Virus record (IMG/VR): IMGVR_UViG_3300034407_003469
Length of the DNA stretch: 20,000 bases
DNA from: an uncultured virus (IMG/VR IMGVR_UViG_3300034407_003469)
Taxonomy: Duplodnaviria; Heunggongvirae; Uroviricota; Caudoviricetes
Direction: 5' to 3' (one strand)
The translations under genes were made by a program, and so were the position numbers. Below the pieces are notes generated by a model that saw only the letters and a list, made by a program, of their open reading frames with translations, was not told the DNA's origin and did not search any database. This document shows, one piece after another, positions 2 to 18,521 of this stretch; position 1 is the stretch's first letter; every line of letters starts with the position of its first letter.

Positions 2-3000
2 TTTAATTCTATCTGCCTGTTCTTTAGTTACTACCCCATCTTTTAAAGCCTCATCTAAATTAGTAATCCAACCCTTTTGAGGATAATCTCCACTAAATAA
101 TTTATCTAAATCATTTTTATTGGTTTTATAAAATTCTTGAACAGATTTTGGATATTCAGATATTTTAACTTTATTTTCTCCAACAAAATCCTGTTTCTGA
201 TATCTATAACCTGATTGGTATCTATCGTATTGAGAGTTTACCTTATCATATATAACTTGTGCTGATTTATTTACCTTTTCTACTATATTATCAATAGCTT
301 CTTGTGTATCTTCATTGCCTTCATCATATATTTCAGGTATTTTCAAACCTATATTTAATGATAAATTATCAAACCAATCGTTAAAATCTGAATCTCTTAA
401 TGAATTAGAAAATCTGCTTTCATTAGGCAAACCTCTTTTATCTTCAGGTAAAAAAGATGGTCGCCCTGCGGGTAAGTTTTTCAATTGGTCTTTAGCCATT
501 TCTAAAACTCCTTTGTCTGCTTCATTTCTTGTATCTTTTCCTTTTGGTTTTGATTTACCTTTCCATTTTGCTATAATTAATAATTGAGAAGGTGTGTATT
601 TTTTTAAACCTTTTACCCCTCCCTCTTTATCACTACCTATTAATATATTAGCTGATGCATTACCAAATTTGATTATATCAACTGCATCTGTTATATTATT
701 TCTTTTATTTCTTTCTAAAGTTTGCCAATTTGATAATAATCCTAAAGTTCCTGTTGTATCTCTTCCAATTATTTCATCTGCAAATTTTTCATATACTTGA
801 TTAGGTGTGAATACAATAGTTCGTGAACTTTCACCTGTTAACATCATATGGGACATCATAGCGATAGATGTCGTTGTTTTACCAAAACCTACTTCGTGTG
901 CTAAAAGACCTGAATTTTTGTTTGCTATGGCAAATTTCATTCCCTCAACTTGTGCATCTCTTAAATTAAATAGGAATGGATTAGGCAAAGACCCAAACCA
1001 TCTTGAATGTTCACAAAATATTGGGAATTTAGTATAATCAGCAATAGCCATATTGTTATATGTTTTATTCCAAACTTCTTCAATATTTGCTCTATAATAT
1101 GGTGTAAGTTGAATTTTACAAAAAGTAGTAAATAAATTATTACCCTCTAAAATTATTTGACTTTCTAATTTTTTATATTTATCAGTAATTACATTGAATA
1201 TTCTTTTGCCCTCGGCTTCTGTAATTGGAGTAAATAATTGTTTTGCCTTTATAGTATTTTTTGGGTTTTTTGGGTCAGGCATATTTACCTCAACTGCTAC
1301 TTTTTTCTTATTTTCAACTAAACCTATTTTTATTAAGTTTTCTCTACTTTGTTGTGTTAAATTACTAAATCCATATGGAGATTTAGGATTATATACATTT
1401 GTTAGTGTAAAGGTTTTTTGATTATTTCTTTTTAAGTAAGGAATAAACTGAAGAGGACAAGGTATATTATCACCTTCATCAGCAATCTTTTCAAATTTTG
1501 GCATTATGTGTTTCTTAATAAATGCTCCTGATGACATAGGGAATATATACCCATCAACTAAATAAAACTCATTTTGTTTTAAATATGGGCTACTAATAAA
1601 ATCCACTCCTTGACCAAATACCACAAACTCATAGAATTTTTTCAAATGATTATTAGTTAAGTTTAAAGGATTGTTTAATTTGAAATCATCATACTGTTGC
1701 TTTTTTGACATACCACCTAATGCAATAGGCTTGTATAAACTTTCTGCCTCTACTTCAATAGTTGAAATACGGGTCTTACCATCTCTAAATACACTATAAT
1801 CCTTACCTATTCTGCCTACAAATCCCTCATCATTAGTAAAAAATATAGGATTATGTATATTAACAATTAAGTTTTTTTCAGGATTTTTATCTCCAAATGT
1901 TAATCTATCAGGCTTATTATTATTTAATAAAGCATTTTGATTATCAACAATTTCTAATCCTTTTGACTCACCATAGTATAGTATTATATTATCTTCAAGT
2001 TCTCTATTTAAATAATTTAATTTTTTGTAAACATCTCCTGATGCATATTCATAGCTATAAGTGTATTTCTGCTCAACTATCTGTCCTGAATCTTTTTCAA
2101 AACTTAATCTTTCTATACATATAAGACCTTTCTCTATAAGTATCGGCAACAGTTTATCAGAAAAAATAAAATAATCAACTCCTAAAATTCTTTGGCTTAA
2201 TTTTCTAAAATAAGAAGAGTTGTCTTTTGAACTACCTCCTTTTGTAACAAAATATGCTAAAACTTCTTCAATATTCATATTTTGATTATTCATCCAAAAA
2301 GTTTCTCTTATATCATATATATAAAAGTAATCAGGGTTAGACCATCTACCTTTGCCAACTTTATCTTTAAAATAAGTGCCTTCAGATGAATCTAAAGACC
2401 ATTTAGGGTTCTTTTTAGTTTTCCATTGCAATTGCCCGTTTACACTTACTTGGTCGGCATATGTAAATATAAAAGATGCTATATTATCTATTAGTAACTT
2501 ATAAAACAATGGGCTTTCTTTTATATCTACTAATTTAGATTGTCTTATTAATGCATCTTGCAATGCTTCTGACTCTTCTATAATATCATCTGATAAAACT
2601 ATTTCTCTTACATTTTGCTCATCAAATAATTTACTCTTTTGTTGTAAAGATAATGATGGCTTATATAATTCTGCATATACAATATGTTCGCAATTAGATA
2701 ATCTTCCTGAACTTACTCCTTTAGCATATCCATATTGCTCTTTATTAGAATTTACAAAGTATGCTTCATCTGATTTAGGGTTAAAATATATGTCAATGGT
2801 ATCAGAATCCAAATCCATATATGTAGCACAAGTCAAAGCAAAATATAAATCATTAGACCTTATATTTATAAAAACTTCGTTTATTTTGTCAAAAAACAAT
2901 TTAATTGATATAGCTTTACTTCCTTTAGAACTTTGTTTTAATGCAGGATTTTCAGAAAAATTTGTATCGTAAAAATTCCTTGATAAAATATTAAAAGGTT

Positions 3001-3991
3001 CTACATTTTTTAATATGTCTTTACCTCTAATACCTGAAACTCTCACATAATCATTATTAGTGTCTAAATTTTTTACAAATTCTGCTTTATCAGATATTTT
3101 TTGTAAGTCGCCTTGACTACATTTAGACAAATCTGATACAGGTTTAAATTCATATTTTGTTGCATTACTATTAATATAATTCAAACTATACCCACCGTTA
3201 AAATAAGAGTTATCTACACTTGTTGATATAGAAAGGGGAGAGCAGATGTAATCTTCAGGTAGTAGTACAGATGTTCTATCATTAATTATATATCCTTCAG
3301 CTTTATTAAATTTATAGTTAATCTTTACACTATTTAAATCTTTATTTGCAACGGCATCAAAAAACTTGGATGTTCTTTCAATTGGTAGTTGTTCTAAATT
3401 TAAATTTTGAGGACATAATTTATACATCAAAAGTCCCATAATATCTACATCTAATGCTGAAGAATCATTTAAAAATCTGTAATCAGGATTTGAAAAAGAA
3501 CTTACAACTCCATTTGGCAAGGATGAAAAGTTAATGTTGGTATATATTTTGTCAAACATATAAACACTTTGACTTTGAAAAGCAACATTCATAACCTGAA
3601 AATTAATTAAGTTAGTTAATGCATCAACTAATTTAGCATAAAAAGAATAAGGCTTTCTATATAATCTTTCAATAAACTTTTTAACATCTGTGTCCAACTT
3701 TCCTTTCGGTGTTAATATTCTATCTCTAAAATATTCTAATTTATCTTTTCCTTGAGAATCGGCTTTTCTTTTTAATTCTTTCCAATAAATACTATTTACC
3801 CCAAATGTTCCATTTATTCTACCATCTCTTCCTTTTAAATATGGACTTTCATTCCCATATATAAAGTCAGGATTTTTTGCAACATACTTGGCAATTATGA
3901 ACATACCTTCATCTTTTAACAATGAATTATCATCAATTGTAGTATTTAATTTGCTTATTTGCTCTCCTATGTAATCTAATATATTTGCCAT
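2..3991 (-). CDS. Giant DarB/COG4646-like SNF2-family helicase (partial, >1330 aa, runs off the left edge; absent from ORF track)
   Basis: Hand translation from ATG at 3991 (MANILDYIGEQISK...) stays open to the edge. In-frame motifs: YASGDVYKKL (res 649; cf. YLSGNVREKL of COG4646), EEVWNKTYNN (res 971), Q-motif LRDAQVEG, motif I LLAHEVGFGKT (nt 907-875), motif Ia IVFTPNQVYEKF. Confidence 0.85.
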   Translation of the reverse strand, partial: MANILDYIGEQISKLNTTIDDNSLLKDEGMFIIAKYVAKNPDFIYGNESPYLKGRDGRINGTFGVNSIYWKELKRKADSQGKDKLEYFRDRILTPKGKLDTDVKKFIERLYRKPYSFYAKLVDALTNLINFQVMNVAFQSQSVYMFDKIYTNINFSSLPNGVVSSFSNPDYRFLNDSSALDVDIMGLLMYKLCPQNLNLEQLPIERTSKFFDAVANKDLNSVKINYKFNKAEGYIINDRTSVLLPEDYICSPLSISTSVDNSYFNGGYSLNYINSNATKYEFKPVSDLSKCSQGDLQKISDKAEFVKNLDTNNDYVRVSGIRGKDILKNVEPFNILSRNFYDTNFSENPALKQSSKGSKAISIKLFFDKINEVFINIRSNDLYFALTCATYMDLDSDTIDIYFNPKSDEAYFVNSNKEQYGYAKGVSSGRLSNCEHIVYAELYKPSLSLQQKSKLFDEQNVREIVLSDDIIEESEALQDALIRQSKLVDIKESPLFYKLLIDNIASFIFTYADQVSVNGQLQWKTKKNPKWSLDSSEGTYFKDKVGKGRWSNPDYFYIYDIRETFWMNNQNMNIEEVLAYFVTKGGSSKDNSSYFRKLSQRILGVDYFIFSDKLLPILIEKGLICIERLSFEKDSGQIVEQKYTYSYEYASGDVYKKLNYLNRELEDNIILYYGESKGLEIVDNQNALLNNNKPDRLTFGDKNPEKNLIVNIHNPIFFTNDEGFVGRIGKDYSVFRDGKTRISTIEVEAESLYKPIALGGMSKKQQYDDFKLNNPLNLTNNHLKKFYEFVVFGQGVDFISSPYLKQNEFYLVDGYIFPMSSGAFIKKHIMPKFEKIADEGDNIPCPLQFIPYLKRNNQKTFTLTNVYNPKSPYGFSNLTQQSRENLIKIGLVENKKKVAVEVNMPDPKNPKNTIKAKQLFTPITEAEGKRIFNVITDKYKKLESQIILEGNNLFTTFCKIQLTPYYRANIEEVWNKTYNNMAIADYTKFPIFCEHSRWFGSLPNPFLFNLRDAQVEGMKFAIANKNSGLLAHEVGFGKTTTSIAMMSHMMLTGESSRTIVFTPNQVYEKFADEIIGRDTTGTLGLLSNWQTLERNKRNNITDAVDIIKFGNASANILIGSDKEGGVKGLKKYTPSQLLIIAKWKGKSKPKGKDTRNEADKGVLEMAKDQLKNLPAGRPSFLPEDKRGLPNESRFSNSLRDSDFNDWFDNLSLNIGLKIPEIYDEGNEDTQEAIDNIVEKVNKSAQVIYDKVNSQYDRYQSGYRYQKQDFVGENKVKISEYPKSVQEFYKTNKNDLDKLFSGDYPQKGWITNLDEALKDGVVTKEQADRIK

Positions 3992-3993
3992 AT

Positions 3994-4236
3994 TTAATCG
4001 TTCAATGTTACCTCAATAGAAGAAATAGCTTCGCCTATTGAAAATACCCCCATACCACTATAAAGGTTGTTTATAATCGTTTCAATCAATTCTATTTTAC
4101 TATTATCATTTTCTATTTGCATAGTTACATTAGGATATTTATTTACATCTAAACTTCCTAATGCATTTACTATATTAGAAACAATTTCTTTTTTTTGTTT
4201 AATACTTTTTATACTATATAGTTTTGGTAATTCCAT
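3994..4236 (-). CDS. Hypothetical protein, 80 aa
   Basis: ATG start; 1-2 bp gaps to both neighbours; no recognisable motif. Confidence 0.8.
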   Translation of the reverse strand: MELPKLYSIKSIKQKKEIVSNIVNALGSLDVNKYPNVTMQIENDNSKIELIETIINNLYSGMGVFSIGEAISSIEVTLND

Positions 4237-4237
4237 A

Positions 4238-4489
4238 TTATCTTAAATACTTTTTTTCTATTTTACCCTCATCAGTTAATATCCAAAACTTATTATCTCC
4301 TGCACTACAAAGAGGTAATCTTGTGTTATATTCAAGATTAAAATTTATTTTTTTTATTGAGGTTTCTCCACCACCTAATAGTTCTACTTCTTCATATCCA
4401 AGTAATTTATCTGCACCACTATCTCTTAAAAATCCTATTGTTAGATTTTCAGAATTTACTATTTGAAAGTTTGGTCCTATGTAAGCCAT
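4238..4489 (-). CDS. Hypothetical protein, 83 aa
   Basis: ATG start; tightly packed in the operon; no recognisable motif. Confidence 0.8.
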   Translation of the reverse strand: MAYIGPNFQIVNSENLTIGFLRDSGADKLLGYEEVELLGGGETSIKKINFNLEYNTRLPLCSAGDNKFWILTDEGKIEKKYLR

Positions 4490-4500
4490 TTTATTATTTT

Positions 4501-4809
4501 TTAATTACAATTATATTCTTTTTTATTTTTTACTCTTGTTAAATAGTCTATTGCTGAATAAATTCTATCTACTTCTGCTTGACTATTTGCAAAATTTAAT
4601 TTACTATATAAATTCTCAAGTTCTAACTTTAAATATCTACAATGTGAAGATTTAACAGTAATTTTAATTGATTTAGGCACTTTATTTTCATCAAATGCGT
4701 GTCTATAAACAAATTCTCCTGAAGGTGTAAATTTATCTATTGTATCTCCTAATGGCATTTCAGATGCCCCTTCTTCATCTCCTGATTGATTAAACCAAAG
4801 TTTTTTCAT
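4501..4809 (-). CDS. Hypothetical protein, 102 aa
   Basis: ATG 1 bp after the upstream stop; no recognisable motif. Confidence 0.8.
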   Translation of the reverse strand: MKKLWFNQSGDEEGASEMPLGDTIDKFTPSGEFVYRHAFDENKVPKSIKITVKSSHCRYLKLELENLYSKLNFANSQAEVDRIYSAIDYLTRVKNKKEYNCN

Positions 4810-4810
4810 A

Positions 4811-5509
4811 CTAATCTTTTTTAAAAATTATTGCTTCATAAGATAAATATCTTAATTTATCATCTGTAAATCTTTTTACTATTTTCATTCCTGCTAATTC
4901 TTCTAATTTAATATCAGATAAATCATTATTAGGCTCATATATTAATACCAAATAACCATTATCATTAACAAAATGAGAACTTCTTTTAGTGTAATATTCA
5001 GTTGGGCTCATATCTCCAAGCCTTTTATTGTTATCTATTGCTTTGTAAAAACTCATTCCACTATTTGGTTGGGTAATTACGATATTATATTTTTTAGAGG
5101 TGTTTGTATTTATTATTGCAAAAAATTGTGAAATATCTCTTTCTGCTGATAAATATAGCCCTTGTGCATTTCTTTCTTGACAAACTAAATCTGTTAATCG
5201 TTTGCATACATAGTCTAAATTGTATGCAGTTATATTACTGTTATCGGGTGCCATATCTAAAATCTTACCTGCACCACTATTTGTATGCATAATACTTACA
5301 GGACTTGGTAAATTTTTATCTCCCTCTATTGAATAGTTAAATAACTCTTTAGAGAACCAACCCCATATATCCTCTACTAATCTATTTGATAGTACAAAAT
5401 CATCACACCCTGTATATCTTTTGAAATATGCCAATTCTTCAACAGATGCATAATAATTTGAAGGCAATGTTTTAATTAACTTCTCTATGTTTTTATTTAC
5501 CTTTTCCAT
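4811..5509 (-). CDS. Degenerate DarB-type N6-adenine DNA methyltransferase-fold protein (probably inactive)
   Basis: Collinear with the DarB-like MTase pattern: EELAYFKRYTG; FVLSNRLVEDIWG (cf. FYTP..V..MW); IMHTNSGAGKIL (cf. VLEPSxGxGRF); ITAYNLD (cf. GxELD); YNIVITQPNS (cf. FDLVIGNPPY); EYYTKRSSHFVNDNGYLVLI (cf. YFI.R.LDLLKPGGLLV.I). Confidence 0.7.
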   Translation of the reverse strand: MEKVNKNIEKLIKTLPSNYYASVEELAYFKRYTGCDDFVLSNRLVEDIWGWFSKELFNYSIEGDKNLPSPVSIMHTNSGAGKILDMAPDNSNITAYNLDYVCKRLTDLVCQERNAQGLYLSAERDISQFFAIINTNTSKKYNIVITQPNSGMSFYKAIDNNKRLGDMSPTEYYTKRSSHFVNDNGYLVLIYEPNNDLSDIKLEELAGMKIVKRFTDDKLRYLSYEAIIFKKD

Positions 5510-5514
5510 TCTAT

Positions 5515-6558
5515 TTAGTTTTTAACCATATCAATATACACCTCTTTTATTTTTTCATCATCCCTAATCCAACCTGCATATTTTTCAAGTGTTTCTCTTT
5601 GACCTTTTGATGTTACCCAAATTTGATTAGTAGGACCGTATTTTTTATAGTCTTTAAACTCACTTTGTCCAATTAACATATCACTAATAAATATAACACA
5701 CATTTCATAATCAGGATTTTCATTTTGCTTTGTTCTTTCTATATCTCCAAGTTTTCTAAATGCACCATCAAAACTTGTACCTCCTCCTCCGTGATAAATT
5801 AATCTGTCTGTTACATCTTTTAACGGTATTTGCTCGTTTGGAACACCAAATTTAGGGTCTTTATCATATGCACTCATTCCACAACTATCACAAACCCAAA
5901 ACTGCCCTGAATATTTTTTAGCTAATTCAGGAATAAACTGTGACAATAATTCTAAAAATGAAACTCCCCCATCAGTATAACTACCCATACTTCCTGATTG
6001 GTCCATTAAAACAACGACTTCTTTATCATTTTTTATTACTCTACTTTTTGCTTTTCTAAATACGGCAACCCCTTGCTCTATATATGTTTGTGCCCCTTCG
6101 TAATCTAAATGCTTTCTTCCCATTTTAGGAGCACCTATCAAATCGCCTAACCCTGCTTCTATTTCTGAAAACCATTCAGGCTCCCCACCTTGTGTTTCAG
6201 GAAGAGCAATAAAACCTAAATCAGTACCTTTTTCTCCTGCACTCGTACTTTCAGCAGGAACAATACTATCAGCTTCAGGAAAATCAATTTTGTTATTCAT
6301 TAACTCTTCTTTTATTTGAGTTACTTCAAATTCAGCTTCTCTAATATCAGTTAAATCTTCAGGAGATAATTTTTCATTTTGTTTAAATGCATTTTTTTCC
6401 ATTGAACCACAAGATGTAGGCATATCATAAGTCAATGGACTTACAATTTTGTTTTGTTGAGTTATTTCTTCTTTTAATCTACCAACAAGACCTTCAAGAT
6501 TTTCATTTAAATCTTTAATAATATTACTATATATTTTTGCCTTTTGTTTATACTCCAT
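5515..6558 (-). CDS. vWA (MIDAS) domain protein resembling the C-terminal half of DUF2201
   Basis: VVVLMDQSGSMG (DxSxS), HGGGGTSFDGAF (MIDAS Thr), VIFISD (MIDAS Asp). Start set at ATG 6558 (TAATG overlap with upstream stop); track start 6564 is an alternative. Confidence 0.85.
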   Translation of the reverse strand: MEYKQKAKIYSNIIKDLNENLEGLVGRLKEEITQQNKIVSPLTYDMPTSCGSMEKNAFKQNEKLSPEDLTDIREAEFEVTQIKEELMNNKIDFPEADSIVPAESTSAGEKGTDLGFIALPETQGGEPEWFSEIEAGLGDLIGAPKMGRKHLDYEGAQTYIEQGVAVFRKAKSRVIKNDKEVVVLMDQSGSMGSYTDGGVSFLELLSQFIPELAKKYSGQFWVCDSCGMSAYDKDPKFGVPNEQIPLKDVTDRLIYHGGGGTSFDGAFRKLGDIERTKQNENPDYEMCVIFISDMLIGQSEFKDYKKYGPTNQIWVTSKGQRETLEKYAGWIRDDEKIKEVYIDMVKN

Positions 6559-6773
6559 TACCATTTATTTTGTGGACATTGTTGCCCATCTAAAAGTGTT
6601 TTTGCTTTTAAAATACAACCACAAGTCAATTGATTTCCATTAACATCATATTCAGGTCTTAAAAGTGTTCCACAGGTCATTCCAACTCCGTATGTTTGTT
6701 TTACATAAGGACATCTGCCACATATATTAAGTCTGTCTTGTGCATTTAATCTTCTTGGTGTATTGCTCCACAT
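6558..6773 (-). CDS. Small Cys-rich putative Zn-binding phage protein (DUF6171-like)
   Basis: RLNICGRCP...TCG...TCGCILKAKT...QCPQNKW fits the CxxC...CGC..K..CPxxKW pattern common in aquatic phages; coupled on both sides. Confidence 0.75.
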   Translation of the reverse strand: MWSNTPRRLNAQDRLNICGRCPYVKQTYGVGMTCGTLLRPEYDVNGNQLTCGCILKAKTLLDGQQCPQNKW

Positions 6774-6774
6774 A

Positions 6775-8250
6775 TTATAATAAGTTTTCTAAATCCATTA
6801 AAGCCTTATCTATATCAGATATTTCTTCTTTTGTCAATTTATCTTGATGTTTATCTTTAATATTTTTAAAATTATTTATTGAATTTTTAATATTGTTTTC
6901 TAAATATACATTATCAATCTTTTCTTGTATATCATCTTTTCTTTTAGTCTGCTCTTTTGTCCAATCTTCTGATTTTTCTCCTTCTTCATCAGACTGTTCA
7001 CCATCTACATCGGTATCTTTTTCTTTTTCCTTTTTATCTCCTTTTTCTTCTTCCTTTTTATCTCCTTTTTCTGCTTCATCTTCACTTTCATCACTTAATT
7101 CATCTGACCAAACTTCATCTCCTTGAGTTTGCCCATCTATTCCTCCATTCATTAAATCTTCAAGTATTTCTTCTTTTTCTTTAATAATATCTTCGGGACT
7201 CTTATTTGCATCACCTTCACCTTCTTCTCCTTGACTATCTCCTTCTTGTTCTTCTCCATCTCCATCTTGCTCTTCTCCACCTCCTCCTTGAGGAGAATCA
7301 TCACCCTCATCTCCATAATCTCCTTGCTCACCCTCTTCTTCAGGAACGGCAGATATAATTTCTTTATCCGTATAAATACCTAATAATTCACCACTTTTTA
7401 CAAATTGTAAACCTTGGGCTCTTTGGTTTTCTACGGCTTTTAAAAAGTTTTCAAACTCTTCATCTGATATTCCCTCAATAATAAAATCACCTTTTTCATC
7501 TATGTCAACAATAACACCGGGCTCTCCATTATATTTTGAGGATTTTTTATCTATTATTACATAATCTCCAATTTCAAAACTTTCTTTTTTATTATCTTGT
7601 TTTTGGCTTTGATTATCTTTGCTTATTCTTTCATTTGCTTTATTAAACTTATCGGCTATAATATACCATTCAGGTACATATGGTCTTTCCTCATCATATG
7701 GTAATTCTATTTTTGGAAATTGTTGTTCAGGTACTAATAATTTTTGTTCTTTGTTTTTAAAATATAAGCACTTGTAAACTTGTTCTAAACCTTCTCTTTC
7801 AAGTTGGTCATTAATTCTTATGTCCATACAAGCATTGCTATTTCTAACTTTACTAAAAGACATAGTTAACAAGCAATCTCCTCTCAATATATGTCCCATT
7901 TCGTGCCTAAAAGATGCTTTCATACAAGGCTCCCAATAACACATATATTTAGTAAAAGTGGGATAACCTATGTAAAATCTTTTCCTTTGTTTAGAATATG
8001 CTGAATAAAAAGTGGTTGCTTTAGGGTCATATTTCAATAATATCTTTTCAGGTATCATACCTGCTTTTCTTATCAAGGGGTCAAGTGTATTTATTCTGAA
8101 ATTATCATCAATCCTTTCAAGAGATGTAGCTATTCTTGTAGAATTGTTTTTTATTACGGAAAATTTTTTAGTACCTATATCTTTTTTAACATTAGATATA
8201 TAAAAGTCCCAAAATTCATCCCAATCAGTAAAATACTTGTGTTCTTGCAT
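6775..8250 (-). CDS. HExxH putative metallopeptidase (DUF2201_N-like) with KOW/SH3-like segment and acidic low-complexity tail
   Basis: RHEMGHILRG (H116-H120) followed by NACMDIRIND (cf. NIAxDxxIN); FEIGDYVII..YNGEPGVIVDID is KOW-like; long E/D/G-rich stretch; TAATG overlap with the AAA gene. Confidence 0.8.
   Translation of the reverse strand: MQEHKYFTDWDEFWDFYISNVKKDIGTKKFSVIKNNSTRIATSLERIDDNFRINTLDPLIRKAGMIPEKILLKYDPKATTFYSAYSKQRKRFYIGYPTFTKYMCYWEPCMKASFRHEMGHILRGDCLLTMSFSKVRNSNACMDIRINDQLEREGLEQVYKCLYFKNKEQKLLVPEQQFPKIELPYDEERPYVPEWYIIADKFNKANERISKDNQSQKQDNKKESFEIGDYVIIDKKSSKYNGEPGVIVDIDEKGDFIIEGISDEEFENFLKAVENQRAQGLQFVKSGELLGIYTDKEIISAVPEEEGEQGDYGDEGDDSPQGGGGEEQDGDGEEQEGDSQGEEGEGDANKSPEDIIKEKEEILEDLMNGGIDGQTQGDEVWSDELSDESEDEAEKGDKKEEEKGDKKEKEKDTDVDGEQSDEEGEKSEDWTKEQTKRKDDIQEKIDNVYLENNIKNSINNFKNIKDKHQDKLTKEEISDIDKALMDLENLL
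7027..7072. repeat. 22-bp direct repeat, 24-bp period, encoding EKGDKKE twice
   Basis: ttcctttttatctcctttttct at 7027-7048 and 7051-7072. Confidence 0.8.
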
Positions 8251-10493
8251 TATAATTTATCTAATAAATCTTTTAATCTAACCCCTTGAGCAGACTTTTT
8301 CATATTTTCATCATATGAGCCTTCATAATAAGTTTCTAAAATGTTTTTAATCTTTGGTATTCTTAAAAAGTCCATAACCTGTTGATTATTTCCCTGTAAG
8401 AAAGCGATATACTTTTCATTATCATCTAAAATCTTACCTAATTCACTTGTAAGCACTCCACGGAAATAAAATCTTATATAAACATCAAGTGATAAAGAGT
8501 TTTCTGAATTATCTGTACCATACAAAGATAGTTTTTCAACTTGCTTTCTCTGTTGTGGTTTCATACCTTTTAACTTTTTCTTGGATGCTCCAAATAATAA
8601 TTTTTCAGTTTGCTCCTTATCTACTTTAAGTGAATGAATATCCCCTTCTTTACCTTTATTCAAAAAGTTTTGAAAGAAATCACTAATTAGTTTTAATTGA
8701 GAATTAAATAAATCAGTATCTAAATTCCTATCTCCTCTATAATTAATCATTAGTTCTTGATAAATAAAAGGTATCATCTTTTCTCCAACTCCTGCAATTT
8801 GGTCATATTCACCTGCTTCGTTTGTATTTGATGCAGATATATGCCCTAAAGCATTATTTGTCCAATTACTTAATGCTGATGGATTACCAATAGTTTTATC
8901 GTATTGTTCTCCTAATGTATTTTTTAACTCATCAAAATATAAATCTTTCAATAAATTATATTTTTCAGTTATTTCTTTTCTTAATCTCATCAATGGAGAT
9001 AAGTCACCCCCTCCTACTTTTGTGGCACCTGCCATAACAGTTTGACCATCTGTTCCTGATGCTATGTAATATTCTTTTGCCAAACACAAAAATAACTTTG
9101 CTAAATCTTGATATAAACTTTGCACTCCTTCATCACTTGAAGATGCACCACCCATAAAATTGTCTAACCATATTTTCCCCCAAGCCGTATTAGTATATAT
9201 TCCACTATCTTCTCTTATAGCAATTTCAGTAGAATCAAAATTTCCGTTATTTTGTCTTAATTTTTCAGCAAAATATGTATTAAAGTTTTGATACAAAAAG
9301 TTACCATCTACATCAGTATCATTTAACATCTTCGGCAAAAAACTATACTGCCATTGTAAATTAACTTCTTTTAAAAATGCAATTTTTCTTAATAATGTAG
9401 TTATATCCATTCTGTTGGGTAAATTATCATCAACACATTTCATTACATTACTCACTTCAACTGATGGTGGATAGAGAGCCATTGTGCTTTTCATAATTAT
9501 TTGGCAAAATCTTCTAAATAAGGCTTCTTCTATTTCTTTTGTAGCATTTGCTATACCAATTATTCTACAATCCATTAGAGGCAATCCATTGTCTATCTGT
9601 GTTCTAATTAAGTCAGCCATTCCACGATAATCACCATAATCTACACCCATCGGTATTGGCATACCCTTTTTATCGTTTATTTCTTTCATTGTCCAACTTT
9701 TCAAAGTTCTTTCACGGACAATATGTAAAAGTGGAGCATATTTATCTTGCTCATACTCTCCAACCTTATCTAATTCATCAAGAACTAACCAATAATTACC
9801 ATAACCCAACAAAGTACACAAGTACATACACATATCTCTAATATCATCTCTTCCTGCATTAATAGAGTCTAAAGTATATTCATATGCCGTAGTTGATTGT
9901 ATTTCAGTTTCAGGGCTTCTTTTAAACTCAAAACCTTTTGAATTAAGAATTTCAGGTGCACCTACAACATCAGACAAATTATTATCCCCTTTATCTTCTA
10001 AATTTGCCACGACTACATTTGTGTTAGGTGGATAGTCTACATCCATCAAACAAATTAAAATTTGATGTAATAATTTATACGAATAAGTAAAAGTTGTACC
10101 TGCTTTATCATAAACTTTTAAATATCTGTCAAATATAGATTGTCCGTTAGCTACTTGAGTAGATATTGTATTAGAATTTGGAAACCAATAAGGCTTTAAA
10201 AATTTTAATATATCTTCTCCTTTTGTAGTTACTTTGCCCTTACTATCTTTTTTTGTTTCATAATCTTCACTAATTAACTTTGCCAATCCTTCTATATTTT
10301 CAGGTTTTTCTGAACCAATGTATAATATTGATGAAGGCAATCTCCATTTTTGAGTTACTTCAATTATGGTGTAAGATTTACCTATTGAAGATTTTCCAAC
10401 TACTAATACAGGTATGTCGTACCTTACAAGTTGTAAGATAGTTTTTAGAGTGTTAGTTCCCTCCCTGTTGATTTCTGATTTGTTTAATGCCAT
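8250..10493 (-). CDS. MoxR/AAA_5-like AAA+ ATPase, 747 aa, with inserts and long C-terminal extension
   Basis: Walker A GKSSIGKS (33-40), SEKPENIEGL..PYWFP, Walker B WLVLDE (235-240), sensor-1 IIGIAN, Arg finger EALFRRF; adjacent to peptidase and vWA genes. Confidence 0.88.
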   Translation of the reverse strand: MALNKSEINREGTNTLKTILQLVRYDIPVLVVGKSSIGKSYTIIEVTQKWRLPSSILYIGSEKPENIEGLAKLISEDYETKKDSKGKVTTKGEDILKFLKPYWFPNSNTISTQVANGQSIFDRYLKVYDKAGTTFTYSYKLLHQILICLMDVDYPPNTNVVVANLEDKGDNNLSDVVGAPEILNSKGFEFKRSPETEIQSTTAYEYTLDSINAGRDDIRDMCMYLCTLLGYGNYWLVLDELDKVGEYEQDKYAPLLHIVRERTLKSWTMKEINDKKGMPIPMGVDYGDYRGMADLIRTQIDNGLPLMDCRIIGIANATKEIEEALFRRFCQIIMKSTMALYPPSVEVSNVMKCVDDNLPNRMDITTLLRKIAFLKEVNLQWQYSFLPKMLNDTDVDGNFLYQNFNTYFAEKLRQNNGNFDSTEIAIREDSGIYTNTAWGKIWLDNFMGGASSSDEGVQSLYQDLAKLFLCLAKEYYIASGTDGQTVMAGATKVGGGDLSPLMRLRKEITEKYNLLKDLYFDELKNTLGEQYDKTIGNPSALSNWTNNALGHISASNTNEAGEYDQIAGVGEKMIPFIYQELMINYRGDRNLDTDLFNSQLKLISDFFQNFLNKGKEGDIHSLKVDKEQTEKLLFGASKKKLKGMKPQQRKQVEKLSLYGTDNSENSLSLDVYIRFYFRGVLTSELGKILDDNEKYIAFLQGNNQQVMDFLRIPKIKNILETYYEGSYDENMKKSAQGVRLKDLLDKL

Positions 10494-10495
10494 AT

Positions 10496-11083
10496 TTATC
10501 TTATTGTTAGTTTGTCACAACTGTCATTTAATTCACTTATTTCAAGCATTTGACCCATACAATCATCATCCAAACACTCTATATTCATTACTGCTCCTTT
10601 TTTGTTAGATGCATCAATTACTGCTTGTGTATAATATTTATAGGTGTGTGAATTAGAAAATTCATTATCAATATTAATTTTTTCTATATTTAATAAATCA
10701 GGATTAGAATAATTTGGTTTTACTTTCATTTGACCAATTTTTCTGTTGTTGCTTCCATCGGAAACATAAAAATCATACTGATTACTATTTTTTCTGTATC
10801 TATCACAAACGGTTGGCTCATACATAACACCTCCTTTTTTGAAAAGAGTAATGTTTGCACCTTTATCAAAACTTACACCATTTCCATCTATTTCATTTAT
10901 TGCAGATGCAATTTCTCTTGGTGTACCTTCAACTCGGTATTTTCTATTGTCAGCCATTGATTTTTTGTTAATAATAGCCTCTCCACCCTCAACTTCAATC
11001 TTTTGACCTGTTGATTTTACAGTCATTGGTATTCCTCCATCTGCGTGAGATGGTCCTTTTGTAAATCCTCCTTTTGCGTTCAT
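10496..11083 (-). CDS. Phage protein with GPSHxxGGI/EVEGGE domain and degenerate GNAT-like C-terminus
   Basis: KGGFTKGPSHADGGIP..IEVEGGEAIINKKS..ASAINEIDGNGVSF; C-terminus IGQMKV..LNIEKINIDNEFSNSHTYKYYTQAVIDASNKKG resembles GNAT beta4-alpha3. ATG 11083 preferred over TTG 11092. Confidence 0.7.
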   Translation of the reverse strand: MNAKGGFTKGPSHADGGIPMTVKSTGQKIEVEGGEAIINKKSMADNRKYRVEGTPREIASAINEIDGNGVSFDKGANITLFKKGGVMYEPTVCDRYRKNSNQYDFYVSDGSNNRKIGQMKVKPNYSNPDLLNIEKINIDNEFSNSHTYKYYTQAVIDASNKKGAVMNIECLDDDCMGQMLEISELNDSCDKLTIR

Positions 11084-11102
11084 AATCAACAAAAATATAA
11101 AA

Positions 11103-11118
11103 TATATTTGTATATTTG
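11103..11118 (+). promoter_or_regulatory. Tandem Bacteroidota-type -7 promoter element (TATATTTG x2)
   Basis: TATATTTGTATATTTG about 66 bp upstream of the ATG at 11185; fits TAnnTTTG. Confidence 0.55.
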
Positions 11119-11184
11119 AATCATAATTAGGACAAGTTTTTTCAATTATTTGTCAAAAATTAAAAAATATTAAAATTTATTTTT

Positions 11185-11403
11185 ATGAAAAACGGAAAAG
11201 TTTTACCCTCGCAATTTACAACAGATAATGGAGAAATATCTCCCATTAGTGTAGCTTTCTTTGGCTTAACACTTGCCGTTATATTTTATCAGCTTACATT
11301 CTATCGTAAGTGGCTAAAGTCAATAGACCATAGCAAAGATTTGGAAGATAGATTAGAAAAATTAGAAGAGCAAAATTCTAAAAATAATGTAACAATCGTT
11401 TAA
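11185..11403 (+). CDS. Small single-pass membrane protein with C-terminal coiled coil, 72 aa
   Basis: Hydrophobic ISVAFFGLTLAVIFYQLTFY then DLEDRLEKLEEQ; lies in an otherwise mostly free gap with an upstream promoter motif. Confidence 0.75.
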   Translation: MKNGKVLPSQFTTDNGEISPISVAFFGLTLAVIFYQLTFYRKWLKSIDHSKDLEDRLEKLEEQNSKNNVTIV

Positions 11404-14806: not shown

Positions 14807-15046
14807 TTACTCTTTTAATAGTTGTTTATCTAACTCATCCATCTCAACAATAGATTGAGGTTTAACTTTAAGTATTTTACATATTTTGACTACTGTTATA
14901 AGATGATAGTTTAATTTTTTACCATTTACTATTTCACTTAATGCATATTGTCCAATGGGAGTTTCATACCTCTTGGCAATGTTGTCATATAACTTCTTTT
15001 GACTAATTTTCCTTTTCTTTAGTAACTTCTTTAATTTAGTTTCCAT
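14807..15046 (-). CDS. XRE/Cro-type helix-turn-helix regulator
   Basis: LKKLLKKRKISQKKL..IGQYALSEIVNGKK..TVVKICKILKVKPQSIVE. Confidence 0.85.
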   Translation of the reverse strand: METKLKKLLKKRKISQKKLYDNIAKRYETPIGQYALSEIVNGKKLNYHLITVVKICKILKVKPQSIVEMDELDKQLLKE

Positions 15047-16602: not shown

Positions 16603-17485
16603 TATTTTTAAAACCATTTTTATCATATGAATTAATAACAAAAGGTGTATAATCTTTAGAATAATTTAATAAAATGTTATGATTAATATATTTTTCTTCA
16701 TTGGCTTTAAAATCATACCACTTTAATTGTCTTGCCTCTAATTCAGTAAATTCTATATAAAAACTTTTATAATCATATCCGTGTTTATCTAATATGTCTG
16801 TTACTATTTTTTTATTATCTCTATCTACATAAACACAATCTGTAAGCCACATATAAAAATTATCACCCAAGGAATGTGCTATTTCCATCATTACTTCTGC
16901 TACATAATTAATAATTGCCCAATAAAATGGACTGTACTTATTTTTATATTCCCAATTAGTATCAGTATTTTTCAATTTACCATTTTTATAAGTTTCAATA
17001 GTTTCGTGTTTGTTAAGACTACCAATACTTGCTAATAAACCTAATTTGTTTTCTTTTCTTTTTTCCCAACCTTTTTTATATAAATTTTCATTTATAAAAC
17101 CAAGATTATATGCAGTTTTGAAATAACAAGCATTTATATCAATTGCATTAGTTAAATCACGAGGACTATTATTTATAGCTTTTTGAATTTGCATAAAATT
17201 ATATAAAACAAGTTTTGGTCTATATATAATTTTTGGAATAGGTTTGCCACTTTCAATATATGCATCAATATTCCTTCTAACAGAATTGACCATATGAACA
17301 CCGGGTAATATATCACTCTTTTGATGTCCAAAATATAATCGTTTGTTTTGAACTTTATCTTTTTTATTAAATATAATTTTTCTTGTTAACCCACTACTAA
17401 CAACTTGAAAGTCTGATTTGTTATTTTGTAATTTATTTATATCAACAGAAAATCTATTTAAATAACCACCCCTTATAGTTGTCAT
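16595..17485 (-). CDS. Minimal family-B DNA polymerase-like protein (palm/fingers only), 296 aa
   Basis: Motif A-like AIDINACY (D116, Y121), motif B-like KLGLLASIG (K147..G155, same spacing as KxxxNSxYG), motif C-like YMWLTDCVY (D216); no exonuclease motifs seen. Confidence 0.65.
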   Translation of the reverse strand: MTTIRGGYLNRFSVDINKLQNNKSDFQVVSSGLTRKIIFNKKDKVQNKRLYFGHQKSDILPGVHMVNSVRRNIDAYIESGKPIPKIIYRPKLVLYNFMQIQKAINNSPRDLTNAIDINACYFKTAYNLGFINENLYKKGWEKRKENKLGLLASIGSLNKHETIETYKNGKLKNTDTNWEYKNKYSPFYWAIINYVAEVMMEIAHSLGDNFYMWLTDCVYVDRDNKKIVTDILDKHGYDYKSFYIEFTELEARQLKWYDFKANEEKYINHNILLNYSKDYTPFVINSYDKNGFKNND

Positions 17486-17760
17486 TATTTAATTTCACTT
17501 TTTTCACATATTAATACATCTCCTACTATAAAATCTTGTGTTTTTATATATTTTCTAAAATAATAAGTTGCTACATCATTTACTTTTTTATTATTTAATT
17601 TACCTTCTTCATCAATTACCATTATATGTCCATTTATATATATAAACTCTACAATACTACTATTTGTATATTTATACATTTCTTCTAAACTAAATGTTTC
17701 ATTTTTAGGATATACTCTTTTTTCAGTAATTTGTTTGTCAACAGATATTAATCTTGCCAT
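17485..17760 (-). CDS. DUF3846-family protein
   Basis: FSLEEMY..IVEFI..MVIDEEGKL..VNDVAT..DFIVGDVLIC. Confidence 0.8.
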   Translation of the reverse strand: MARLISVDKQITEKRVYPKNETFSLEEMYKYTNSSIVEFIYINGHIMVIDEEGKLNNKKVNDVATYYFRKYIKTQDFIVGDVLICEKSEIK

Positions 17761-17789
17761 ATTTTTATTTGTATTAGTTTAATTTCAAA

Positions 17790-17820
17790 ACAAATATAAT
17801 AATTATTTTTAAAAACAAAT
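17790..17820 (-). promoter_or_regulatory. Conserved promoter, copy 2 (TTTG-N17-TATATTTG)
   Basis: Minus strand TTTGTTTTTAAAAATAATTATTATATTTGT, 30 bp upstream of ATG 17760. Confidence 0.7.
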
Positions 17821-17894
17821 GAATATATTTTAAAAAATGTATTTATATCATATAAAGTATGTAAAAATATATATATAAAAAAAGAATTATATAA

Positions 17895-17975
17895 AGTAAA
17901 AGGACTATATAGTTAAATATAGCCCTTTTGTGAAATCAAACACCACAAAGCAATGGACAGGGATGTCCCGTGGTA
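17895..17975 (-). ncRNA. Candidate ~80-nt small RNA
   Basis: Lies between a TATATTTG element (17979-17986) and the terminator; GC-rich nested stems ACCAC/GTGGT and GGACA/TGTCC. Confidence 0.35.
17898..17929 (-). terminator. Intrinsic terminator-like hairpin
   Basis: Minus RNA AAAAGGGCUAUAU-UUAACU-AUAUAGUCCUUUU pairs fully with one G-U (an A-C mismatch on plus), followed by U-rich sequence. Confidence 0.65.
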
Positions 17976-17978
17976 ACA

Positions 17979-17994
17979 CAAATATACAAATATT
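17979..17994 (-). promoter_or_regulatory. TAnnTTTG promoter element (AATATTTGTATATTTG)
   Basis: Shares 15 identical bp (ATATTTGTATATTTG) with 11104-11118. Confidence 0.5.
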
Positions 17995-18084
17995 TATTAT
18001 ATAAAGAATTTTTTGTATTATTGCATTAGTTAGATAATGGGATTGGTCAACCTAATTGACTGAACATAATACATTTTTGTTTTG

Positions 18085-18117
18085 GAAAAGCCAACTTTAG
18101 ATAGGAGTTGGTTTTTC
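18085..18117 (+). terminator. Terminator-like hairpin (possibly bidirectional)
   Basis: GAAAAGCCAACUUU-AGAUA-GGAGUUGGUUUUUC pairs fully on plus with three G-U pairs; abuts the DUF6165 stop. Confidence 0.55.
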
Positions 18118-18119
18118 TT

Positions 18120-18521
18120 TTAATAAGGTTTATATGATTTTTGTTCAGATATATCAGAACCCATTAATTTATCTATTGATTTTTTTATAGACATTCTTTT
18201 ATCATTAGTAATATATACACTTCTTGCTATATCAATAAAATCATTATCAAATTCTTTATTTCTTTCTTTATCTCTTATGTTATCTTCTATAATCCATAGT
18301 TTACTATTTATATTATATAAATCTTTATATAAAGTATTTATATTTTCTATAACATCTTTATCCATCATTTTATAATATTTTAAATAAACCTGATTTAAAC
18401 TATAAAATTCTATATCTATAAATTTAATTTTTTTTATATCAGTTATTTTTTCTGCCTTAATTTTTAATATAGTTAATTTATCTATTAACTCTCCAAACGA
18501 AACAGGGATGTGTACTGTCAT
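18120..18521 (-). CDS. DUF6165-family protein
   Basis: IPVSFGELIDKLTILKIK..INSKLWIIEDNIR..FIDIARSVYITNDKR..IK..I..LMGSDISEQKSY. Confidence 0.85.
   Translation of the reverse strand: MTVHIPVSFGELIDKLTILKIKAEKITDIKKIKFIDIEFYSLNQVYLKYYKMMDKDVIENINTLYKDLYNINSKLWIIEDNIRDKERNKEFDNDFIDIARSVYITNDKRMSIKKSIDKLMGSDISEQKSYKPY

Follow-up and report, generated by a model that had tools for sequence, protein, structure and literature searches.

Gene content of the block

The DNA considered here, a stretch of 20,000 nt from the uncultured virus IMGVR_UViG_3300034407_003469 (IMG/VR; Caudoviricetes), is termed the window. It carries a block of ten consecutive open reading frames (ORFs) on the minus strand, g1 to g10, which run from position 11,083 down to base 2 (Table 1). 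The predicted products are of known kinds. What is new is their arrangement, in which a split and enlarged MoxR/DUF2201 set, consisting of an ATPase, a zincin and a vWA protein, is fixed between unbundled pieces of polyvalent-type proteins. The identities proposed for the individual parts are regarded as highly probable.

Every notable ORF of the 20-kb window is encoded on the minus strand, and the GC content is 18-32%. The spacings from g1 to g10, taken from the ORF coordinates, are 2, -1, 1, -7, 5, 1, 11, 1 and 2 nt; the overlap of -7 nt between g4 and g5 becomes -1 if g5 begins at its second methionine codon, at 6558. The original prediction, made from the sequence alone, had described ten same-strand, near-contiguous genes, and this description agrees with the ten minus-strand ORFs found, which are 1-11 nt apart or overlap slightly. 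As g10 runs off the window, the block is incomplete there.

Table 1. Positions of the block genes and of the gap that precedes them
Feature	Position	Strand	Size and predicted product
g1	10496..11083 (ORF 10496-11092, ATG at 11083)	-	195-198 aa; g1N domain and weak GNAT-like half
g2	8250..10493	-	747 aa; putative AAA+ ATPase, AAA_5/MoxR class
g3	6775..8250	-	491 aa; putative divergent DUF2201_N zincin
g4	6558..6773	-	71 aa; Cys-rich small protein
g5	5515..6564	-	349 aa; putative DUF2201-type vWA protein
g6	4811..5509	-	232 aa; predicted Eco57I-like methylase fold without NPPY
g7	4501-4809	-	102 aa; small protein
g8	4238-4489	-	83 aa; small protein
g9	3994-4236	-	80 aa; small protein
g10	2-3991	-	first 1,330 aa of a putative giant SNF2-type helicase protein; open at window edge
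Intergenic gap 5' of g1	11084..11377	.	285-294 nt; one of two gaps of >250 nt between minus-strand ORFs

The ATPase, the zincin and the vWA protein

By its motifs and its likeness to AAA_5 proteins, the g2 product can in the main be assigned to the MoxR class of AAA+ ATPases. Invariant in 23 sequences are the Walker A residues G33, K39 and S40, the Walker B residues D239 and E240, N316 (sensor-1) and R327 and R328 (arginine finger). The protein has two extra parts, an insert of ~130 amino acids (aa) that precedes Walker B and a C-terminal tail of ~400 aa. When residues 1-420 were compared by Atlas (language-model) features, the best ten named clusters were all AAA_5; the highest score was 0.95, with 174 features in common. 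No Pfam family matched g2 at E 0.01 or better, and PF07728 did not match the g2 homologue in contig C24 at E values up to 10; the long insert may disrupt the alignment and so explain the absent AAA_5 match. Alignment by hhalign with the bacterial MoxR partners of DUF2201 is confined to residues 24-109 (E 0.0012, probability 19%), the alignable part extending from Walker A through the motifs GLP and W-FP. The g2 profile found nothing among Protein Data Bank (PDB) sequences. In a contig of a metagenome-assembled genome (MAG), the ATPase homologue is present as two ORFs of 234 and 441 aa (L085:613-2649), which may stem from a frameshift, misassembly or a disrupted gene.

The g5 product largely holds up as a DUF2201-type vWA protein with an intact metal ion-dependent adhesion site (MIDAS), as judged by profile alignment. 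Against a bona fide DUF2201 protein, hhalign gave a probability of 96.3% (E 1.5e-9) over 143 columns. The MIDAS comprises DxSGS, GGGGT and D; residues D188, S190, S192 and D295 do not vary among 30 sequences, and the glycines of GGGG(T) are invariant or nearly so. Scores against Pfam lie under the cut-offs: PF09967 on a g5 homologue reached 21.7 bits (E 1.5e-4, cut-off 26.4), the sole match in a 1.2-Mb MAG, and VWA_2 on g5 reached 21.3 bits (cut-off 27). The g5 profile gave weak vWA matches only among PDB sequences. No fused vWA form of >652 aa was found, a length band unsuited to this search, as true fused forms are of ~400 aa. DUF2201-type genes of cultured phages are often annotated as HNH endonuclease (e.g., phage-collection matches H4, H5 and H8), and phrog_1314, which carries the same label, matches a vWA homologue; the label is probably a propagated misannotation.

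The protein encoded by g3 displays a zincin domain at aa 1-215 (HExxH and D), a KOW/SH3-like segment, a long low-complexity region that is acidic and Gly-rich, and a conserved C-terminal helix. Profile searches indicate that it is, for the most part, a divergent zincin of the DUF2201_N type. Residues H116, E117, H120 and D125 are invariant (30-33 sequences), as are N139, D143 and N147 within an N-x-C-M-D-x-R-I-N stretch. A profile of the first 215 residues, run on 1.84 billion representatives, detected 63 proteins at E ≤ 0.001. Eighteen of the matches are distant (E 6e-8 to 1e-3, library-wide). The 12 of at least 200 aa were scanned for domains, with the six shorter ones left out: seven show DUF2201_N and/or DUF2201 over cut-off, one is under cut-off and four have neither. 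Two distant matches have DUF2201_N and DUF2201 in one protein. PF13203 did not match g3 of the window; on a g3 homologue it gave 14 bits (E 0.011, cut-off 23.2), again the sole match in the 1.2-Mb MAG. Similarity of the KOW segment is to L24 proteins and is weak (E 0.001, profile against PDB sequences). Larger zincin homologues of 1,199 aa (L049:5115-8711) and >1,014 aa (L022:12249-15290) have the g3 domain after ~700 extra N-terminal residues. In the acidic region of g3, 18 nt are missing at 7022 in one RNA-library contig and 3 nt at 7220 in another, which looks like in-frame length variation of the low-complexity region between strains.

Between the zincin and vWA genes lies g4, which matches phrog_13558 (E 7e-12) and, under cut-off, DUF6171. 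It is found in 25 loci, all of closer relatives, in the same position.

Taken together, g2, g3 and g5 are, on alignment and gene order, the known MoxR plus DUF2201 set with its second gene split in two. This reading follows from the bacterial arrangement, where a MoxR-type gene of 332-352 aa is found directly upstream of the fused DUF2201_N-DUF2201 gene in 3/3 loci examined. The MoxR-class ATPase, the zincin and the vWA protein named in the original prediction are largely upheld: the Walker motifs and the AAA_5 clusters speak for the first, the reach of the g3 profile to bona fide DUF2201_N proteins for the second, and the invariant MIDAS with the hhalign result for the third.

The flanking polyvalent-type products

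The g1 product consists of an N-terminal domain of ~85 aa, here termed g1N, and a C-terminal half with weak likeness to GNAT proteins. Alignment of g1N reveals invariant G, H, GGIP and E-x-E-G-x-E positions. A g1N hidden Markov model (HMM) detects one copy per locus 5' of the ATPase gene in 60 of the 70 loci with room to judge, and the copy is adjacent to the ATPase gene in 56. The domain is found in 51 proteins of 343-2,000 aa. Long proteins with g1N also carry ART-PolyVal, Zeta_toxin with AAA_33, RelA_SpoT, Eco57I, DUF5661, DUF5824, DUF3140 or DUF6496, a domain content typical of polyvalent proteins. In these long relatives g1N is at the N-terminus in 36 of 52 matches and mostly near the C-terminus in the rest; in one locus (L074) it heads an ORF of 2,567 aa that stops at the ATPase gene. 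In Elizabethkingia phage TCUEAP1 (L096, record 7615-11298) it ends a 1,227-aa protein encoded 5' of the genes for the portal and the capsid maturation protease, a gene position that makes the annotation of this protein as a tail tape measure doubtful. A protein of 448 aa (L057:3437-4780) joins g1N to DUF6496 and to the core of a topoisomerase IB of eukaryotic type (Topoisom_I, E 8.6e-26).

The predicted model of g1 has an overall confidence (pLDDT) of 57.7, with values of <50 for residues 1-87 and of 62-87 for the C-terminal half (~aa 88-195). The C-terminal half may weakly represent a GNAT-like fold in this model. In structure comparisons 36 of 50 rows are titled acetyl- or acyltransferase or GNAT; the best Foldseek E value is 9e-4, and the Z scores of 5-6.6 are below the tool's level of 8. 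The acetyl-CoA-binding motif of GNAT proteins is Q/R-x-x-G-x-G/A. A reading of the sequence, made without a GNAT alignment, did not reveal this motif between the predicted strand 130-138 and helix 145-159. The g1 profile found nothing among PDB sequences. A GNAT domain was among the modules of the original prediction, and the weak GNAT-like fold of g1 is in loose accord with it.

For g6, the predicted model (pLDDT 91) displays a class-I S-adenosylmethionine-dependent methyltransferase fold, and every match by Foldseek (E ~1e-9) and VIA (Z ~15) is a methyltransferase. The best viral match by TM-score (0.74; root-mean-square deviation 3.5) comes from a DEXDc phage protein of 992 aa, of which it forms the methylase module; further high-ranking viral matches are likewise modules, of larger proteins (1,200-1,500 aa) that bear the name DNA methylase or helicase. 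The g6 HMM matches 12 of the 51 long proteins with g1N (~48-52 bits for the three with scores) and overlaps the stretch of Pfam Eco57I (PF07669) in all three proteins checked. There, GNPPYG of the fused relatives aligns with TQP of g6. The canonical (D/N)PP(Y/F) is present in 0/30 members of the g6 family, which have TQP, SQS, THPPA, SQPPA/K and similar sequences in its place. For this reason g6 is not classed as an active adenine methylase. Many polar positions are invariant across the family, which suggests that the protein is under selection. By sequence and predicted model, g6 is a methylase homologue without the canonical catalytic motif and not a proven dead enzyme; its profile found nothing among PDB sequences. 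The original prediction of a methylase fold with a lost motif fits these results. Its wider term, pseudo-enzymes, is sustained only as far as the loss of canonical motifs.

The g10 product can mostly be accepted as a superfamily 2 (SF2) helicase of the SNF2 type, on the strength of its motifs. The ORF is still open at 1,919 aa (L001) and 1,920 aa in two contigs that share 98-99% identity with the window, and a relative in a 32.6-kb MAG contig (L085) has 2,538 aa. Helicase motif I comes after some 950 N-terminal residues. Motifs II and III lie past the window edge, as does the second lobe, which is near residues 1,800-2,090 in relatives; an insert of ~380 aa separates motifs Ia and II. GFGKTT and DEIH (motifs I and II) are invariant in the family and SATP (motif III) is nearly so. 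SNF2-rel_dom scores 22.6 bits for g10 of the window (cut-off 24.9) and 26.9 in L033, Helicase_C reaches 36 bits in two other loci (L057 and L072), and ResIII matches are also present. Family matches to phrog_62 (E 1.7e-16) and phrog_1685 (E 1.3e-20) are graded weak, as is the match of a DarB-like PHROG (E 3.4e-5), and the profile found weak RapA matches only among PDB sequences. Atlas features of the N-terminal part offer one lead, DUF8437 with a score of 0.78. The sole cultured-phage match by tblastn is gp15 of Leptospira phage LE1, with 31% identity over 12% of the query. An SNF2 helicase was among the modules of the original prediction, and the helicase motifs with the SNF2-rel_dom and Helicase_C matches are in accord with it.

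The small genes g7, g8 and g9 match no family. By blastp they are found in 18, 14 and 29 loci, respectively, g9 being the most widely kept of the three.

The original prediction spoke of a disassembled DarB-like helicase/methylase. The term disassembled is fair because relatives have fused, single-protein forms, in which one polypeptide carries g1N together with effector domains and an Eco57I-type methylase with the canonical NPPY.

Conservation of the block

Screening of metagenome contigs confirmed 107 relatives. From these, 80 loci with 31-99% identity to g2 were kept; the loci were not de-replicated and some are near-identical. Family profiles were run over these 80 loci, the DNA needed past the ATPase start being 2.9 kb for g3, 5.2 kb for g5, 6.3 kb for g6 and 8.5 kb for g10. 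In the loci long enough, g3 is present in 63/63, g5 in 44/45, g6 in 42/42 and g10 in 38/38, and the ATPase thus has a neighbouring vWA partner in nearly all. Where g5 is missing, in a single locus (L022), the ORF that bears g3 is much longer. All four genes are found in 38/38 long loci, and their order is the same in 37; in the exception (L071) the vWA gene lies 5' of the ATPase gene, still within the cluster. The block is kept down to 31% identity of the ATPase and ~20-25% identity of the giant protein. Its conservation is beyond chance. A synteny check had been suggested with the original prediction, and in the related loci the homologues are linked and not scattered.

In distant loci the gene just 5' of the ATPase gene encodes ART-PolyVal, LPD3, DUF5661, DUF6496, or topoisomerase IB fused to the g1 domain, and divergent loci have polyvalent-type genes on both sides of the ATPase gene. 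Two loci (L052 and L053) belong to one metagenome contig, in ranges ~21 kb apart, and have identical positions of the block genes; a duplication of the block or an assembly of the concatemer type could explain this.

The phage lineage and possible expression of the block

The exact DNA of the window is complete in 14 DNA runs from seawater or marine samples, which belong to 5 studies, so that this phage is common in seawater data sets. Among 8,000 candidates scored, 227 relatives of g2 have E ≤ 0.001. All 120 matches listed are free of precomputed Pfam domains; among them the named samples are all marine and the contigs are up to 160 kb. The cultured-phage collection gave no DNA or protein match for the window and none for g2, and no relative was found in viral_contigs with g2 or the g2 alignment. 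The lineage is an abundant, uncultured, low-GC marine phage.

That the block is instead a conflict island from a bacterium or plasmid, of the 'ternary system' type built on MoxR-vWA, is scarcely credible. Bacterial conflict systems in which a MoxR-vWA couple is joined by extra effectors are known (PMC7159879), and relatives of the block do occur in MAGs, one labelled Gammaproteobacteria and another Bacteroidetes. Against this, phrog_13558, phrog_26016, DUF3846, Phg_2220_C, RusA and PDDEXK_14 are phage-type families of the window and its relatives, the genes lie on a single strand with low GC, and related contigs are of 70-105 kb; the MAG contig itself measures 32.6 kb and has the same set of phage-like genes.

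Contigs from RNA libraries of two studies contain 22-54% of the sampled words of the window and cover 24 to 30 of 30 bins. Pieces span the junctions g10-g9-g8-g7-g6, g6-g5 and g5-g4-g3. These contigs are compatible with expression of the block; neither transcription, nor a single transcript, nor a strand is proven by them. The gap 5' of g1 is a possible start of the transcription unit and contains a weak 5-bp hairpin at 11230-11243. Promoter-like sites in the window are not above those in shuffled sequence (147 vs 143). The gap and the weak hairpin are all that mark a putative 5' limit of the operon. The strongest terminator-like site of the window, a 13-bp hairpin with a T-rich tail at 17898-17929 (-), lies in a 359-nt gap (17761-18119) and may mark the real start of the long minus-strand gene run. 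Scans of the window detected no tRNA and no Rfam family.

Upstream of the block are genes for a Cro/C1-type HTH protein (14807-15046, -; HTH_26, E 3.9e-8) and a DUF6165 protein (18120-18521, -; E 1e-6). A protein of 91 aa (17485-17760, -) matches DUF3846 (E 3.8e-9), phrog_3777 and phrog_18340.

Possible function of the block

The most probable of the explanations considered, itself put at even odds, is that the block represents a polyvalent-protein system spread over separate genes, with the split MoxR/DUF2201 set remodelling or trimming cargo that adjoining genes encode. The polyvalent pieces would be the terminal handle and GNAT-like half of g1, the methylase fold of g6 and the giant SNF2-type helicase of g10; between them would lie the ATPase of g2, the zincin peptidase of g3 and the vWA adaptor of g5. 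The ATPase ring may dock via the vWA protein and grip and remodel phage cargo proteins, which the zincin would trim. Likely cargo would be the giant helicase together with the methylase-like protein that partners it, and proteins that bear the g1 handle; the purpose may be assembly or packaging, or activation after entry. The zincin would in this case stand outside the cargo, paired with an unfoldase-type ATPase and a peptide-binding adaptor. That the giant helicase and associated products are clients of the chaperone set is a claim that, on sequence evidence, stands a little short of even. As g6 has lost its motif and is nevertheless kept in every locus, it may be a non-catalytic partner of the helicase.

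Several observations weigh against this assignment of function. The upstream genes u5, u7 and u8 are likewise kept in distant loci, and part of the synteny can therefore be simple collinearity of the lineage. No capsid, portal, other structural or packaging gene was seen in the DNA covered from the loci, apart from one weak terminase-like PHROG match (E 2.5e-5). No fold was obtained for g1N, the segment with pLDDT <50, and the first 950 aa of g10 match no family and no fold. Sequence support for AAA_5 in g2 is indirect, given the lack of a Pfam match and an hhalign probability of just 19%. Comparisons of the g3 family by hhalign, first with one and then with three bona fide DUF2201_N proteins, found nothing; the assignment of g3 is weaker than that of g5 for this reason, as its relation comes from the library-wide profile search only. 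Lastly, in Alteromonas phage A5, which is N4-like, a gene for a 352-aa ATP-binding protein is followed by a gene for a 417-aa metallopeptidase, and this pair is located between rIIA/rIIB-like genes and helicase/DNA polymerase genes, with no SNF2 or methylase neighbour. An ATPase/DUF2201 pair can thus work outside the neighbourhood described here. For the same reason the word dedicated, applied to the machine in the original prediction, is unproven: a fused pair is found beside an ATP-binding gene in an N4-like phage that lacks SNF2 there.

A different explanation is that the block consists of two unrelated neighbours. The chaperone set would do a general phage job, in virion assembly or processing or in the replication phase, the methylase-like protein and the helicase would act separately on DNA, and their adjacency would be lineage gene order. 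The pair of N4-like phages, placed among replication genes without SNF2, agrees with this view. So do the status of N4 gene 25 (vWFA) and gene 24 as core middle genes (PMC4193335), the proposed role of the jumbo-phage pair in virion assembly and structural-protein processing (PMC7824862) and a synteny that reaches beyond ten genes. The explanation is nevertheless rated as rather unlikely, since the block persists to 31% ATPase and ~20-25% giant-protein identity, the cluster was retained in L071 when the vWA gene moved, polyvalent-type genes flank both sides of the ATPase gene in divergent loci, and gaps of 1-11 nt suggest common expression.

The set might also act on the host, as a counter-defence weapon in which a host protein, captured at the metal site of the vWA protein, is unfolded by the ATPase and then destroyed by the zincin, while the helicase and the methylase-like protein shield phage DNA. 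Catalytic motifs are intact in g2, g3 and g5, and ART-PolyVal effectors are encoded in neighbouring loci. Some zincin domains are allowed as effectors on host proteins (PMC5512222). No result points to a host target, and DUF2201 pairs occur beside MoxR in ordinary bacterial genomes without a phage context, so that a housekeeping chaperone ancestry fits better than a weapon. This explanation is accordingly held to be very improbable.

In a bolder reading, the MoxR/zincin/vWA set could be a dedicated unfoldase-protease for giant injected cargo. The metal site of the vWA protein would read the g1N handle or acidic tails, and the set would thread, trim or load polyvalent proteins for packaging and ejection. 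The N4-like (genes 24/25) and AR9/PBS1-type jumbo-phage pairs would in a like manner serve virion-packaged RNA polymerases. This extended proposal is distinctly unlikely at present.

The ATPase and metallopeptidase-vWA pair is widespread (72 cultured-phage records; gene 25 is core in the N4-like genus) and has no established function. Its location among polyvalent pieces provides a concrete and testable client hypothesis. The block also indicates that polyvalent proteins can occur unbundled, as separate genes.

Comparison with known systems

The original prediction did not recognise the arrangement as a described system. This is correct in part: a MoxR plus metallopeptidase-vWA pair is known in phages. 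In the literature passages covered, a link of the chaperone set to polyvalent or SNF2 genes was not found, and a literature search produced no functional study of DUF2201 in phage or of the vWA, ATPase or metallopeptidase of Schitoviridae.

In polyvalent proteins, the methylase-SNF2 dyad is either fused or encoded by neighbouring genes. Zincin peptidases are the commonest hub domain of these proteins and are proposed to process them, and some zincin domains may be effectors on host proteins; the words MoxR, vWA and AAA+ are absent from the main text of this source (PMC5512222). The DarB-type dyad, represented by P1 DarB and LE1 gp15, has a giant SNF2-type helicase and an adenine-methylase-type module nearby, as is the case here. 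It differs in that the methylase module of the block is a separate 232-aa protein (g6) without NPPY, with the helicase in g10, which has an insert of ~380 aa and an unmatched N-terminus of 950 aa. The LE1 methylase-helicase gene is located a few genes after the portal gene. A DarB-like single polypeptide of methylase and helicase is ruled out for the block, as g6 and g10 are separate genes.

The ternary conflict systems of multicellular bacteria, as presented in PMC7159879, link a MoxR-vWA couple to further effector genes. They are bacterial defence systems with VMAP, an inactive STAND, FtsH or a beta-propeller as third component; none of these was seen in the block, and they were not searched for. 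The context here is phage-like, unlike that of the ternary systems.

The bacterial operon of MoxR and DUF2201_N-DUF2201 has the same gene order as the block; the Walker A region and the GLP and W-FP motifs can be aligned, and the vWA domain is clearly homologous. Its ATPase lacks both insert and tail, and its second protein is fused, with 390-423 aa. Few of the sampled genomes have this operon (1/101 and 3/301).

A MoxR plus metallopeptidase-vWA pair has been reported in group 2.2 jumbo phages (PMC7824862). With the MoxR-vWA system of Acidianus two-tailed virus as the analogue, that source proposes a role for the pair in the assembly of virions, with structural proteins being processed by peptidolysis. 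The same three domains are involved, but the peptidase and vWA domains are fused in the jumbo phages and split here. No SNF2 or polyvalent link is mentioned in the passages covered from that source.

The N4-like phages (Schitoviridae) offer a further parallel. By tblastn, 72 cultured-phage records, many of them of 70-77 kb, match a bona fide DUF2201 protein. In N4 itself, gene 25 ('vWFA domain') and gene 24 (function unassigned) are core, middle genes according to PMC4193335. By analogy with the gene order in A5, we infer that N4 gp24 is the ATPase of the pair. The block products resemble the A5 proteins weakly (hhalign E 0.025, 0.17 and 2.7e-4). As in the block, the ATPase gene of the N4-like pair is directly 5' of the DUF2201_N/DUF2201 gene. 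Peptidase and vWA form one protein there and the ATPase has ~350 aa, whereas here they are split and the ATPase has 747 aa. The N4-like pair has rIIA/rIIB-like and replication genes as neighbours, in contrast to the polyvalent-type genes that surround the set in the marine phage.

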